DNA of 63,940 bases, counting the filler, from an uncultured bacterium (GTDB lineage Bacteria; Hinthialibacterota; Hinthialibacteria; Hinthialibacterales; Hinthialibacteraceae), in the NCBI GenBank assembly GCA_964449065.1. It is 6 parts of 6 records of this genome, joined end to end, with 100 filler letters (N's around TTAATTAATTAA, not from the genome) between each part and the next. Parts side by side here need not be neighbours in the genome. Positions count along the whole stretch, not along the records: positions 1 to 10,904 come from CAYVAZ010000168.1; 5 more parts are not named here. The stretch is one strand, 5' to 3'. Made by a program: the position numbers and the translations under genes. Shown one piece after another: positions 3,865-27,099 of this stretch (the stretch's first letter is position 1; each line of letters opens with the position of its first letter). The notes beneath the pieces are model-generated. The model searched no databases. It was given only the letters and a program-made list of their open reading frames with translations, and had not been told where the DNA came from.

Positions 3865-4981
3865 ATATGGGGCTCCCGGATAAAGCATTTGTATACCAAA
3901 GTTGGCTTAATTTATATTTTTTTAGCCAAAGAGAAAGTGCTTGTTTATCTAATCGTTCGAAATTGGACGCTCCGTTATTACGCTCTACTACAATAATTTC
4001 TTCTGGTTCAAAATAATCCAACAAGGCAGATGATTGGGTAGAAATGATGATCTGTGATTGGAAGGATACTTCATTAATCAATCCAGCGATAATATCAATG
4101 GCCTGTGGATGCAGTCCGAGTTCAGGTTCATCAATAATGATCGTGGATGGTGACTCTGGCTGCATTAACGCTGTGACTAGACCAATAAACCGAATGGTTC
4201 CATCGGATAAATGGTAGGGTTTTAATTGAATGTCTGAGCCTTTTTGTTTCCACAAAAGCCAAATATTTTCATGGTCATCCGGTTTAAAAACAAATTCATC
4301 AAAGAATGGGGCAACCAAACGAATGATTTCTAAAATTTTTTGATACAAAATCGCGTCTTCATTTTTGATTCGAAACAAAACGGGAGCAATATTAGAAGCA
4401 TCTTCCCGTAAATACGAATTATCGTCAATCGATTCTGAACGGCGCATTGAAGCCAAATAGCTCGTATCGTTGAAATGATAAATCATCTGAGAACGAATGG
4501 ATCTATAACACTGCATTACGGCAGCAGGCTTCAAAAAACTATCATGACTTTTATAGGCTTTTATCAATTCTGGCGAAGTGTGACCACTGCCCCATGATTT
4601 CCAATCAGTTGAATCATTACCATTGTAATAAGCTTCATCCTTGATGAGGCAAGTTTTGTCTGCAGTCGGTATGAGGACAAAACGGTATCCATAGTTTCCA
4701 AAAAACAGTTCTACTTCAATTTGTTTTGTCATTTTAGGTCCATTAAATAGAAGATTATCAATGCCACCAAAAAAATTGAGGTAAGCTTTTAAATTGCCAA
4801 TAGGCAAACCAGGCAAAGGCAGTTCCATCATCGCGCGCAGCATACGGAAGAAGTCAATTAAGTTACTCTTCCCGGCGCCGTTTCCACCGATGAGCACGTT
4901 TAAATTCGTCAATTCAAAATCTTCAAGAGATTGAATCGACTTAAAGCCTTTTATGGTTAGTTTGTTAAGCGCGTGCGGCAT
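3845..4981 (-). CDS. ABC/AAA_21-type ATPase
   Basis: IKGFKSI, Walker A GGNGAGKSN, signature LSDGT, Walker B IIIDEPELGLHP, ISTQS. Confidence 0.92.
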   Translation of the reverse strand: MPHALNKLTIKGFKSIQSLEDFELTNLNVLIGGNGAGKSNLIDFFRMLRAMMELPLPGLPIGNLKAYLNFFGGIDNLLFNGPKMTKQIEVELFFGNYGYRFVLIPTADKTCLIKDEAYYNGNDSTDWKSWGSGHTSPELIKAYKSHDSFLKPAAVMQCYRSIRSQMIYHFNDTSYLASMRRSESIDDNSYLREDASNIAPVLFRIKNEDAILYQKILEIIRLVAPFFDEFVFKPDDHENIWLLWKQKGSDIQLKPYHLSDGTIRFIGLVTALMQPESPSTIIIDEPELGLHPQAIDIIAGLINEVSFQSQIIISTQSSALLDYFEPEEIIVVERNNGASNFERLDKQALSLWLKKYKLSQLWYTNALSGSPIYVEYQS

Positions 4982-9635: not shown

Positions 9636-10322
9636 ATGGCTGATAAACCGAGAGATATTTATATCCCTGCAGAAAGTTGGGCAAATGTTGTCCGGGTTAT
9701 CGCGCCCAAACCCAAGAGTATTGATCCCGCCTTCGCCCACGCGCTGGTGCAGTTTGACCGCTACGCGAAAACCATAAAGGGCGATATCGGCGACGCCATC
9801 CGCCAATGCCACGATCACCTGGAACGCTTTATGGCCAACGCCCAAGAATTGGTGGAAGCCGAATCCGGCGAGCGCACCGAACGTTTGGGACGGCCGCGGG
9901 AGTTCGATTTCGGCCAAAGCACGCTCACATTTCAAGTATTTCAATACAAAGGGCAAGATACCGTTTCTATTGAAGAAAAACGTTTTGCAGCGTTTGTTTC
10001 TAAATATGATCTCTTCTTTGAAACGCTGCGTTTTATGGAGAGCAAAGTAGAAAAGGGGGAATTGGGTATATTCAAAAACACCTTTATGTTTATCCATAAG
10101 CCGCTGTCCAGCGCTTCGGTACTGATTGAACAAGCGGTAGAAAAAACCTATTTGCAGCGTACCGCAGTTATCGGAGAAAAAGCCGATCCGCACTATGTGC
10201 ATATTGCCGGTACGGAAGATACCAATGAATTCCCCTCCGGACACGTTGTGCGCATCCTCAAACCGGGTTACGCCTACGAAAACCGCGAAATCCAAGAAGG
10301 CGTAGTCATCGTTGCCTCTTGA
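9636..10322 (+). CDS. GrpE-like domain protein (divergent)
   Basis: C-terminus IGEKADPHYVHI...GHVVRILKPGYAYENREIQEGVVIV resembles the GrpE beta domain; N-terminus atypical. Confidence 0.55.
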   Translation: MADKPRDIYIPAESWANVVRVIAPKPKSIDPAFAHALVQFDRYAKTIKGDIGDAIRQCHDHLERFMANAQELVEAESGERTERLGRPREFDFGQSTLTFQVFQYKGQDTVSIEEKRFAAFVSKYDLFFETLRFMESKVEKGELGIFKNTFMFIHKPLSSASVLIEQAVEKTYLQRTAVIGEKADPHYVHIAGTEDTNEFPSGHVVRILKPGYAYENREIQEGVVIVAS

Positions 10323-10525
10323 TACTTTTGAATCTTTCACAAAACCTGGAAATTCATACCTTCATGAGGAAATTTTTTCCTGCTCTTATCACGCTAACAT
10401 CCTCTTATAGCCTCTTATTTTTCGGTGAAAGAGACAAGACCGTTCCACAATAACAGTTATTTATCTATTTGATATATCTTAACTTAAAAATAAATTTTCG
10501 TGTAATAGGCTTTAAAAATCCTATT

Positions 10526-10541
10526 TGGCACGCCCCTTGTA
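10526..10541 (+). promoter_or_regulatory. Putative sigma54 (-24/-12) promoter
   Basis: TGGCAC-GCCCC-TTGTA versus consensus TGGCAC-N5-TTGCW; correct spacing, one mismatch at -12; AT-rich upstream. Confidence 0.6.
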
Positions 10542-10551
10542 TATAAAGCGT

Positions 10552-10721
10552 GTGGGTGCTGTAAGCGAAGGTTGACTCAGGACCTCGACAGACATCGAGT
10601 GAACTGCCGAGGTAACCTGCAACCTTCATCACTGAAGGTTGACTATGTTGGCGGAGCTGACCAACAACCTTCGGAAACATTTGACCGGAAATGAGGCGGA
10701 GCCTCATTTCCGGTCTTTTTT
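10552..10721 (+). ncRNA. Putative structured small RNA (~170 nt), family unknown
   Basis: GC-rich, no credible ORF, bounded by a sigma54-like promoter and a strong intrinsic terminator; internal complementary GAAGGTTG/CAACCTTC blocks. Confidence 0.55.
10683..10721 (+). terminator. Rho-independent terminator
   Basis: 15-bp perfect stem GACCGGAAATGAGGC-GGA-GCCTCATTTCCGGTC followed by T6. Confidence 0.9.
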
Positions 10722-10776
10722 CTTGTCACAAATTCCTTCCTGACAAATTTCCACCAAAATCATACCGCTTCAATAA

Positions 10777-10904
10777 AATAACTGACGTTACGCAAAATTC
10801 TATACGGTAGGTATTGTTGCGAGATTTAAATCCGTTTCGATAGTCACTAAATAACTCACGTTACGCACTACATTATGATATGCCCGTTTTTCTCATCGTT
10901 CGCT
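10777..10904. repeat. Two adjacent MITE-like repeats starting AATAACT(C/G)ACGTTACGCA
   Basis: 10777-10853 matches the reverse complement of 22152-22228; 10850-10904 matches 43972-44075 (rc), 54744-54848 and 63766-63869. Confidence 0.8.
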
Positions 10905-25398: not shown

Positions 25399-26073
25399 TT
25401 ACTTCGGTAAATATTCAACCAACGGGCATGCATCGCATTTGGGGGTTTTGCGGCAGTAGTTGTGACCGACAGCCACGATCTGCGCGTGAAAATCTTGATA
25501 GAGATTTAATTCTTTAGGGATTGCATCTTCAAATAGTTCCTGCAAGCCGTGATAATCGATTTCTTCCTCCGCCCAGTGATGACGGGTCATGACGCGGTAG
25601 GTATACAGATCGATTACAAACGATAAATGATCTCCGGCATAGAGTAATATCGAATCGGCGGTTTCCGGCCCGATGCCTTTGATGGCAAGTAATTTAGGCC
25701 GCAGTGATTCCGTCGGTTCTTGAAACATTTTCGTTAAACTTCCCTTGTATTCTTTGTGTAAGAACCGTAAAAAGTTTTTGATCTTGATGGCTTTTTGGTT
25801 GTAGTAGCCGGAGGGGCGGATGAGTTCTGCCAGCTCTTCTTGGGGAAGTTTAGAAAGCGCTTTGTAGCTCAACACGCGTTTTGATTTGAGGTTCTGGAGC
25901 GCTTTTTCGACGTTCTTCCAATTGGTGTTTTGGGTGAGGATGGCGCCGAGGATAATTTCCAGCTTCGAATCGCCCGGCCACCAGTTGCGGTGGCCGAAGC
26001 GGTTCTGAAGCACATTGTATATTTCAAGCAAATCGACTCGTTTACCCACACTGTTTCTTATCACTTCACTCAA
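25399..26073 (-). CDS. HhH-GPD endonuclease III-domain DNA glycosylase
   Basis: WWP, GAILTQNTNWKNV, IRPSGYYNQKA, IKGIGPETADSILLYA, CRKTPKCDAC; exact start uncertain. Confidence 0.92.
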   Translation of the reverse strand: MSEVIRNSVGKRVDLLEIYNVLQNRFGHRNWWPGDSKLEIILGAILTQNTNWKNVEKALQNLKSKRVLSYKALSKLPQEELAELIRPSGYYNQKAIKIKNFLRFLHKEYKGSLTKMFQEPTESLRPKLLAIKGIGPETADSILLYAGDHLSFVIDLYTYRVMTRHHWAEEEIDYHGLQELFEDAIPKELNLYQDFHAQIVAVGHNYCRKTPKCDACPLVEYLPK

Positions 26074-26152
26074 TTATCACTGCGCCATTGGCGGATTCGG
26101 TACGTACCTCGGTATCATAATACAGAAACGCGGTGTTGGTACCGCCATCGGC
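26066..26152 (-). repeat. 87-bp orphan duplicate of the alpha-2-macroglobulin gene 3' end
   Basis: 81/87 identical to 30637-30723; reads ADGGTNTAFLYYDTEVRTESANGAVIIE-stop. Confidence 0.95.
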
Positions 26153-26163
26153 TATTGATAAGC

Positions 26164-27099
26164 TTACGAATTCGGTCTTTTGCCGTCCAGCATATTATAG
26201 CCTTCGGGTGGTTCCGTTGAAAAAAGATCATCTGTAACACTTCCATCATTGAACGATGCCTCTAAAACCGTAAGAACCTGTTCAGAAATCACTTCCCCTT
26301 CATCGATTTGATTTAATGATGGCGCATTGATTTGACGAATGGTTGAGGATTGGGGATAGAATACTTCCCCGTATTGCTGGATGTCATTAATTTCAATATC
26401 AACAATTTCACCCCAAACCGGGTTCCGGTAGGTACAACGTTTAAACAGACTTGGATACGTTGGATGATATTCAATCCTGGCCAATTCAACTGTTGACTGT
26501 GGGGTGGAATATGTGCCCATGATTGTGGATGTATTTCCCACAGATGCCACATGGATGGATGGCAACTCGCCGGATTGGCTGCGTACTTCCGCCGCCAATG
26601 ACATCACCCCATCTACATCATACCCCAACGCCTGTGGCGGTAGATAAAGGGTGCCGGAATTGCTCATTCTGTAAGGTACGGGTTTGCGTGGATTTACCAG
26701 CCCCAAAACATGGTCGAGCAATGTGATTTTTTCACCATCATAGATATAAGATCTATGGATTGGTTCCGGATAAAAGTCACTGGGTTCCCGTTCCACATCA
26801 AAACGGAATTTATCATCTTTAAAATACGCCCGTAGATGTTTTGAATAGGTGACCGTTTGTGGTTCTACAGCATTGGCATATTGAGTTAGGTCTTGTATGT
26901 TTTGGATGTCAATTTGAGGTCTGGCCTCATGTGTGTAAACAGATAAATAAAGCACATTACCGGAACGCAAAGCCCGGTCATTTTCTTTTATGGTACTGAG
27001 TGGTGCATTCGCATAAGCAATCAACGCAGTAACGAAAATTGCAGAAACACTTATGAGGATAAAACGAATATTGAAGGAATTCTTAAACATGATGGTCAT
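26164..27099 (-). CDS. Secreted hypothetical protein (possible LolA/lipoprotein-sorting-like beta fold)
   Basis: Signal peptide; KFRFD, YDGE, FYP and VTDDLF motifs; GGAG RBS. Confidence 0.65.
   Translation of the reverse strand: MTIMFKNSFNIRFILISVSAIFVTALIAYANAPLSTIKENDRALRSGNVLYLSVYTHEARPQIDIQNIQDLTQYANAVEPQTVTYSKHLRAYFKDDKFRFDVEREPSDFYPEPIHRSYIYDGEKITLLDHVLGLVNPRKPVPYRMSNSGTLYLPPQALGYDVDGVMSLAAEVRSQSGELPSIHVASVGNTSTIMGTYSTPQSTVELARIEYHPTYPSLFKRCTYRNPVWGEIVDIEINDIQQYGEVFYPQSSTIRQINAPSLNQIDEGEVISEQVLTVLEASFNDGSVTDDLFSTEPPEGYNMLDGKRPNS

Follow-up and report, generated by a model that had tools for sequence, protein, structure and literature searches.

The small RNA locus

The window, i.e., the whole stretch of 63,940 nt of DNA that was analysed, is composed of joined contigs of an uncultured bacterium, and genes past position 10904 are not neighbours of the RNA gene described here. 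This gene is located near the end of contig C168, at a distance of 180 nt and downstream of a gene with a GrpE-domain match, and specifies a predicted small RNA of about 170 nt (10552..10721, plus strand, as all its parts and upstream elements) with a start predicted at 10552-10554. It is preceded by a sigma54-type -24/-12 promoter (TGGCAC-N5-TTGT, 10526..10540) and closed by an intrinsic terminator of conserved fold (10683..10723), consisting of a 15-bp stem (10683-10715) followed by a T run. Between these elements four sequence blocks alternate, with GAAGGTTG at 10567 and 10634 and CAACCTTC at 10620 and 10665, while GGCGGAGC is present twice, at 10650 and 10695. All features listed in an earlier note on this DNA (promoter, blocks, GGA loops and terminator) were thus found in place. 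The note had also seen no credible reading frame, which agrees with the finding that the only ORF overlapping the gene is antisense and 80 codons long, and that ORFs over the homologues fail to cluster with it. The segment 10540-10730 has a fold energy of -78.3 kcal/mol (z = -6.44), and none of 200 shuffles was equally stable. Judged by these features, the element is a gene for a structured, non-coding RNA, flanked by a sigma54 promoter and a terminator, from which a transcript is predicted.

In its own genome the gene occurs as one copy. Hence, the many dispersed copies by which the earlier note would have recognised a repeat are not present, and a dispersed repeat as identity of the RNA is ruled out; the adjoining repeat is a different element. 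The latter, at 10775-10904, is dispersed and unrelated to the RNA, gives 133 hits on 120 contigs, with 108 hits at most 300 nt from a contig end, and is probably a miniature repeat element breaking the assembly. On the other side, 9636-10322 encodes a 228-aa protein that matches GrpE in its C-terminal part only and is conserved ahead of the RNA gene at roughly half the loci.

The predicted RNA consists of four parts. It starts with a single-stranded 5' tail, GGGUGCUGUA (10554..10563), which contains GGGTGCT in 28 of 28 distinct homologues. Hairpin P1 (10567..10627), formed by blocks 1 and 2 plus an inner stem, shows compensatory changes in 5/7 and 5/9 pairs, respectively, and exposes the loop UCGAGUGAA (10595..10603), with CGAGTGA again in all 28. 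Hairpin P2 (10634..10672) is built from blocks 3 and 4 and carries one GCGGAGC loop (GGCGGAGC at 10650-10657), whereas the second one (10695-10702) is part of the terminator; two copies of GCGGAGC are found in 27 of the 28 homologues, the remaining sequence being cut off. Across the complete tail-P1-P2-terminator fold, 22 of 41 pairs display compensatory changes, which exceeds all 500 shuffles and all slid controls.

In the earlier note, two mutually exclusive folds had been proposed, together with a possible conformational switch. Both folds are indeed possible in the RNA of the window, where they are nearly equal in predicted share (57% vs 43%), yet the alternative one finds no support in covariation: with an alignment fitted to the tail-P1-P2-terminator fold, which biases the comparison against the alternative helices, compensatory pairs number 5/7 in helix 1-2 and 2/7 in helix 3-4, as opposed to 0/7 in helix 1-4 and 1/7 in helix 2-3. 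Covariation therefore supports the two-hairpin fold. The alternative reaches at least 40% in four of 27 full-length sequences (43% in the own genome, favoured in three others) and is negligible in most. Likewise, one of the inner stems previously described, CAGG/CCTG, does not generalise, as just 25% of its cells in the homologue alignment are paired. For a cis-acting conformational switch or attenuator of a downstream gene, the near-equal folds in the own genome would speak, as would a co-oriented PiT-family phosphate transporter gene downstream of the RNA at 10 of 19 loci; this gene was not found in the own assembly. In the other loci, however, the neighbours are unrelated or oppositely oriented, and neither fold touches the terminator, while the alternative one leaves all loops exposed. 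Neither a constant co-oriented downstream gene nor a fold competing with the terminator, as would mark a riboswitch or attenuator, was thus seen, which makes such a switch very improbable. Since the downstream neighbours vary in identity and orientation across the 19 loci, the RNA is rather expected to act in trans.

Promoter and upstream elements

The promoter is conserved in 19 of 19 loci, 26-28 nt upstream of the invariant 5' tail, and rpoN is present in the own genome. About 160 bp before the -24 box, an enhancer-like site, GG(C/A)AA-N3-TT(T/G)CC (10368..10380), is predicted to bind a sigma54 activator. It is found in 19/19 training loci at -138 to -202, a circular count insofar as the matrix was built from the same 19 loci; six of nine held-out loci score at least 16 bits. 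The same enhancer also precedes the fliK-flgD-flgE operon and its sigma54 promoter. It was seen there in 12 of 21 genomes, or in 12 of the 16 with a recognised promoter, as against about 1% of background windows. The RNA likely belongs to the sigma54 flagellar class and has its enhancer in common with the hook operon. In Vibrio, FlrC binds CGGCAA repeats. Here, the activator of the shared enhancer is possibly a pair of PAS kinase and sigma54 response regulator encoded on the contig that also carries flgB, flgC and fliE; this assignment derives from gene neighbourhood, and the regulator is one of 18 strong sigma54-activator matches.

The same enhancer (14-16 bits) is combined with sigma54 promoters at three further positions of the own genome (G000), i.e., on C490 near 190 (plus strand), C329 near 370 (minus strand) and C11 near 9035 (plus strand). 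These sites precede small unknown ORFs or non-coding sequence and are possible further regulon members. Between enhancer and promoter of the RNA gene (10440-10490), AT-rich TAAGT/ACTTA-type elements are present, which recur in many homologues and are IHF-like by consensus.

Occurrence in the phylum

In a DNA search of 61 genomes, 16 of the 19 family members each gave a single strong match, at 70-77% identity. Of the phylum's 35 genomes, 23 gave one copy each with a covariance model, and these 23 all belong to one order: 18 of 20 in the own family, 4/4 and 1/2 in the order's two other families, and 0/9 outside the order. The two genomes of the own family that lack a hit are 85-86% complete, and looser searches did not find the RNA gene in G021, G026, G015, G017 and G028. 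A pattern scan of all species genomes resulted in 11 records. One of them, from an actinomycete (L092), fails the covariance model and was rejected as a homologue, and among metagenome pattern hits ten of 20 match the model while the other ten do not. Another record, SURF_12, is placed in OLB16, i.e., Ca. Hinthialibacterota, by PMC9324843; the phylum of the RNA-bearing order is likely Ca. Hinthialibacterota.

The best scores of the RNA against the Rfam covariance models are far below the gathering thresholds, and four homologues gave nothing at the gathering threshold either. In particular, the models of Qrr, GlmY, CrcZ and other sigma54-dependent small RNAs in Rfam do not match, nor do the Csr/Rsm families. 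A literature search, with subscription papers and bioRxiv supplements (motif lists) outside its scope, returned no description of this RNA. The proposal of a new sigma54-type regulatory small RNA in the earlier note is supported by the conserved promoter, spacing, fold and terminator and by the lack of an Rfam family.

Complementary sites around flagellin genes B and A

The order encodes 4-9 flagellin-domain matches per genome, among them very long flagellins of about 800-970 aa (G000 contigs C14, C95, C197 and C441). Possible targets of the RNA were examined in 113 flagellin upstream regions from the loci of 35 genomes, a subset of the flagellin hits, which were assigned to paralogue groups by a quick tree used for sorting only. 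The complement of the P1 loop, CACTCG, is found in 19 of 19 leaders of flagellin A and its reverse complement in none of them, and it is missing from 15 of 15 flagellin leaders of families without the RNA; in the own genome, TCACTCG occurs in 35 of 3892 upstream windows. The target, UUCACUCGA, is itself an invariant hairpin loop, the stem of which shows compensatory changes in 7 of 11 pairs. The complement of the 5' tail, CAGC(A/G)CC, often in the form CTACAGCACCC, is present in 16 of 19 A leaders and 0/15 outgroup leaders (background in the own genome, 133 of 3892 upstream windows). On contig C14 of G000, tail sites are located at 26915 and 27043, with predicted duplexes of 13 and 10 bp, and the P1-loop site at 27010, with a duplex of 9 bp. 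All A-leader sites lie at least 75 nt upstream of the A start, and none overlaps the ribosome-binding site. For the combined tail and loop match, flagellin A ranks second among 3842 genes of the own genome. The sites of the top gene (C20, a TPP-enzyme subunit) fall inside upstream coding sequence in the own genome, where alone they were considered, and it was rejected. Genome G021, which is 95% complete, retains loop and tail sites in a flagellin leader, while the RNA gene was not found there, and in four genomes of other families with a readable B 3' end, three of them carriers of the RNA, the tail sites are in the B leader instead.

Two further pairings were set aside. Leaders of group C flagellins contain GCACCC in 21 of 22 cases and thereby resemble targets of the 5' tail, but their motif TCGCAC (19/22) suits a second RNA (see below) better, and they do not count here as support; a 6-8 bp pairing of the tail with them is possible. 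Pairing of blocks 2 and 4 with AGG(T/C)TG of a conserved leader hairpin was based on comparison by eye across genomes and showed no covariation. The A and C leaders share a conserved element, ACATAACCCG followed by a CCAGG-YTGAC-N-CCCTGG hairpin (locus L206, about 4740-4830, and upstream of group C), which is preceded by GGAGG without an evident start codon. Leaders of group D flagellins (e.g., on G000 contig C197) have conserved motifs of their own, AAGGCCTCGGAAACCTT and a CATGCGGTCG hairpin, which may be bound by additional RNAs.

The third seed, the GCGGAGC loop, has its complement at the other end of the intergenic region. Flagellin gene B lies directly upstream of A in 14 loci, with a spacer of 1269-1891 nt, and 55-142 nt after the B stop follows a GC-rich hairpin without a T run, the loop of which is the complement of GCGGAGC (AGCUCCGCC). 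This complement was found in 14 of 14 family loci (12 exact, G-U compatible in the own genome, and mismatched in one), compared with 31 of 3748 in the background of the own genome and 0/15 after A, A2, C and D genes. Here, too, the loop is invariant, with compensatory changes in 5 of 10 pairs of the stem. In the own genome the site is at G000:C14 25496, about 1.4 kb from the A-leader sites, and would form a duplex of 9-10 bp. An exposed AGCTCCGC loop is absent from four genomes of other families with a readable B 3' end, three of which have the RNA; their RNA keeps GCGGAGC.

Common variants of the seed sites are G-U compatible (CAGCGCCC, CACTCGG and GCTCTGC), and duplexes calculated from RNA and target of the same genome are more stable than 95 or more of 100 shuffles in 16/17, 17/17 and 11/14 cases for the three seeds. 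The seeds in RNA and target are nearly invariant, and true compensatory change between the two is scarce; moreover, the genomes are kin and the counts are not independent. Short motifs common to two flagellar loci could also be binding sites of a protein factor on the DNA that happen to lie in opposite orientation. The strict strand bias, however, and the position of the motifs in loops of covarying stems on both sides, along with the G-U-compatible variants, leave this explanation hardly credible.

The conserved partners also bear on the GGA loops, for which binding of CsrA had been suggested in the earlier note. CsrB, RsmY and RsmZ are small structured RNAs with GGA in loops, having many ANGGA loops. 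The RNA studied here differs from them by its sigma54 promoter, its antisense partners and only two GGA loops, which read GCGGAGC and not ANGGAN; an ANGGAN hairpin is present in just 5 of 28 homologues. It could nevertheless bind CsrA via these two loops, either as a sponge or as a CsrA-bridged partner of the flagellin mRNA. In favour of this, csrA is encoded in 35 of 35 genomes, adjoining fliW in the own genome, and CsrA-type ANGGAN hairpins precede the ribosome site in 17 of 19 A leaders and 21 of 22 C leaders. Furthermore, CsrA can promote pairing of a small RNA with its mRNA in B. subtilis, as described in PMC6546359. Against it, the GGA loops have a conserved antisense partner of 7-10 nt, and CsrA binding would leave the tail and the P1 loop unexplained. 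We consider CsrA binding an improbable role; the GGA loops are predicted antisense seeds with conserved partners and do not look like CsrA sites, and CsrA control of the flagellin leaders is probably a separate layer.

In a reversed direction of control, the B-A spacer might act as a sponge that inactivates the small RNA, the real targets of which would lie elsewhere, with late flagellar transcription switching the RNA off. All three seeds are covered by the spacer and no site overlaps a ribosome-binding site, as would suit such a sponge; the same holds for the duplicated hairpins in G008 and G011 and for the repeated tail sites in several genomes. A precedent is FlaY, proposed to sequester FlaX in Vibrio (bioRxiv 10.64898/2026.08.28.747715). 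Yet a scan of the own genome revealed no other convincing target: the best other match of the GGCGGAGCU loop, at the fliD end (fliS/fliD), ranks first of 3842 there but is not conserved in the other 29 fliS loci and was discarded. The sponge is accordingly given little weight.

The B-A spacer and a second predicted RNA

The spacer itself encodes a second predicted antisense RNA (L206:4130-4320, corresponding to about 26130-26320 on G000:C14), 709-1190 nt before A. Its hairpin loop TTCTTCCTC and nearby GTGCGA motifs are present in 16 of 19 loci, the other three being too short, and it has no match in Rfam. It is complementary to the ribosome site GGAGGAAGAA and the TCGCAC loops of group C, with a mean duplex energy of -21.4 kcal/mol for group C vs about -14 for A, B and D; TCGCAC occurs in 19 of 22 C leaders and in 0 of 19 A leaders. 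Just upstream of this second RNA lies a small conserved ORF (L206 about 3998-4096; G000:C14 about 25998-26096), 30-46 codons long, for a basic product with LA(Y/F)x at its end; it is present in 11 of 14 full spacers.

A regular expression for the sigma28 consensus placed promoter-like sequences before 13 of 22 genes of group B and 19 of 22 of group C, while none of 19 A genes has one within 600 nt and a single weak hit was obtained for A in up to 1300 nt. Neither a sigma54 nor a sigma70 promoter for flagellin A was found in the B-A spacer, and the spacer gave no conserved terminator, with terminator-like hits in 3 of 14 loci. B and A are therefore probably carried on one transcript.

A possible mode of action

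The RNA has its own promoter, an intrinsic terminator and no coding frame, and is predicted to expose single-stranded seeds, the complements of which are conserved in an mRNA encoded elsewhere, as is typical of trans-acting small RNAs. From the sequence evidence assembled here, it is quite probably a trans-acting antisense RNA that base-pairs with the flagellin B-A message and would thereby help to set which paralogue is made. According to this proposal, the RNA would accumulate while the hook genes are on, B and A would be carried on one sigma28 transcript, and the RNA would make loop-loop contacts at two places, one being the hairpin that follows the B stop and the other the A leader, 100-270 nt before the start codon.

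How docking would influence expression is constrained by the position of the sites. Blocking them in folding models hardly changed the accessibility of the ribosome site and did not unmask it, and unmasking of the Shine-Dalgarno sequence was rejected, there being no consistent change in these models. As the sites are at least 75 nt from the A start and nothing opens upon blocking, occlusion does not fit, nor does unmasking. Unpaired bases within the final 450 nt of the spacer are C-rich in all 14 loci, and the host has Hfq and Rho. In long leaders, Rho termination can be either enhanced or prevented by small RNAs, as reported for RydC and CpxQ on cfa (PMC12691595). In the favoured version, A expression would be promoted because the RNA shields the long, C-rich untranslated leader against decay or Rho-dependent termination, and A would then require sigma28 as well as sigma54. 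In the opposite version, docking would cause the B-A message to be terminated or degraded for as long as the hook phase lasts. Promotion of A is narrowly favoured over repression. It is also conceivable, though rather doubtful, that one RNA clamps both ends of the spacer, its GCGGAGC loops being bound just 3' of B and its tail and P1 loop just ahead of A, so that the small ORF and the second antisense RNA, which would silence flagellin C, are looped out.

Relation to known RNAs and implications

In CopA/CopT, RNAI/RNAII and RNAIII-rot of S. aureus, recognition starts between exposed hairpin loops. These kissing systems either work in cis on plasmids or involve two loops close to each other, in contrast to the three seeds and the loops at both spacer ends predicted here. 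With regard to its targets, the closest likeness is to FlaX of Vibrio cholerae and V. parahaemolyticus, a sigma54-class RNA with several sites in flagellin mRNA leaders and paralogue-specific effects (PMC11879080; bioRxiv 10.64898/2026.08.28.747715); for the RNA of the window, membership in the sigma54 class and multi-site flagellin pairing are so far predictions. As described in these sources, FlaX arises by cleavage of the flaA 3' UTR and acts with ProQ, and on flaB it covers the Shine-Dalgarno and standby sites. The RNA studied here, on the contrary, stands alone with its own promoter and terminator and without a flagellin neighbour, none of its sites touches the ribosome site (those in the A leader are at -75 or more distant), hairpin loops serve as seeds and as targets, and about 1.4 kb separates one site from the others. 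No sequence relation between the two is expected, and it is by these descriptions that they are set apart.

Additionally, FlmE (CJnc230) and FlmR (CJnc170) of Campylobacter jejuni show that an RpoN-class small RNA can link the hook stage to late flagellar genes in a CsrA-FliW organism and can be paired with a second small RNA (PMC11187230). According to the same text, FlmE is processed from the flgE mRNA and represses flgM and Cj1387c, whereas the RNA of the window is predicted to target a flagellin message. RydC and CpxQ on cfa (PMC12691595) resemble it in that they pair with a long leader at a great distance from the start codon and in that either sign of regulation is possible; here, a role of Rho is suggested only by C-richness and the long untranslated spacer. 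The best reading is hence an RNA with FlaX-like logic that is unrelated to FlaX and is not a Csr/Rsm RNA, Qrr or another Rfam RNA.

If this reading is true, a fully specified RNA control circuit, comprising promoter class, seeds and target sites, would have been read from the genomes of an uncultured phylum, and it would represent a further independent origin of a sigma54-dependent small RNA ordering flagellin paralogues. Its geometry would differ from that of FlaX and FlmE, with three separate seeds and loop targets on both sides of a kilobase-scale spacer and none at the ribosome site. It would also imply that, even where a genome encodes CsrA, GGA loops can serve for antisense pairing and not for protein binding. 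If the RNA governs the spacer, group C flagellin is predicted to be governed indirectly as well, and if the clamp applied, the RNA would be a molecular staple governing read-through or excision of the spacer, with the paralogues flipped via a two-RNA cascade.
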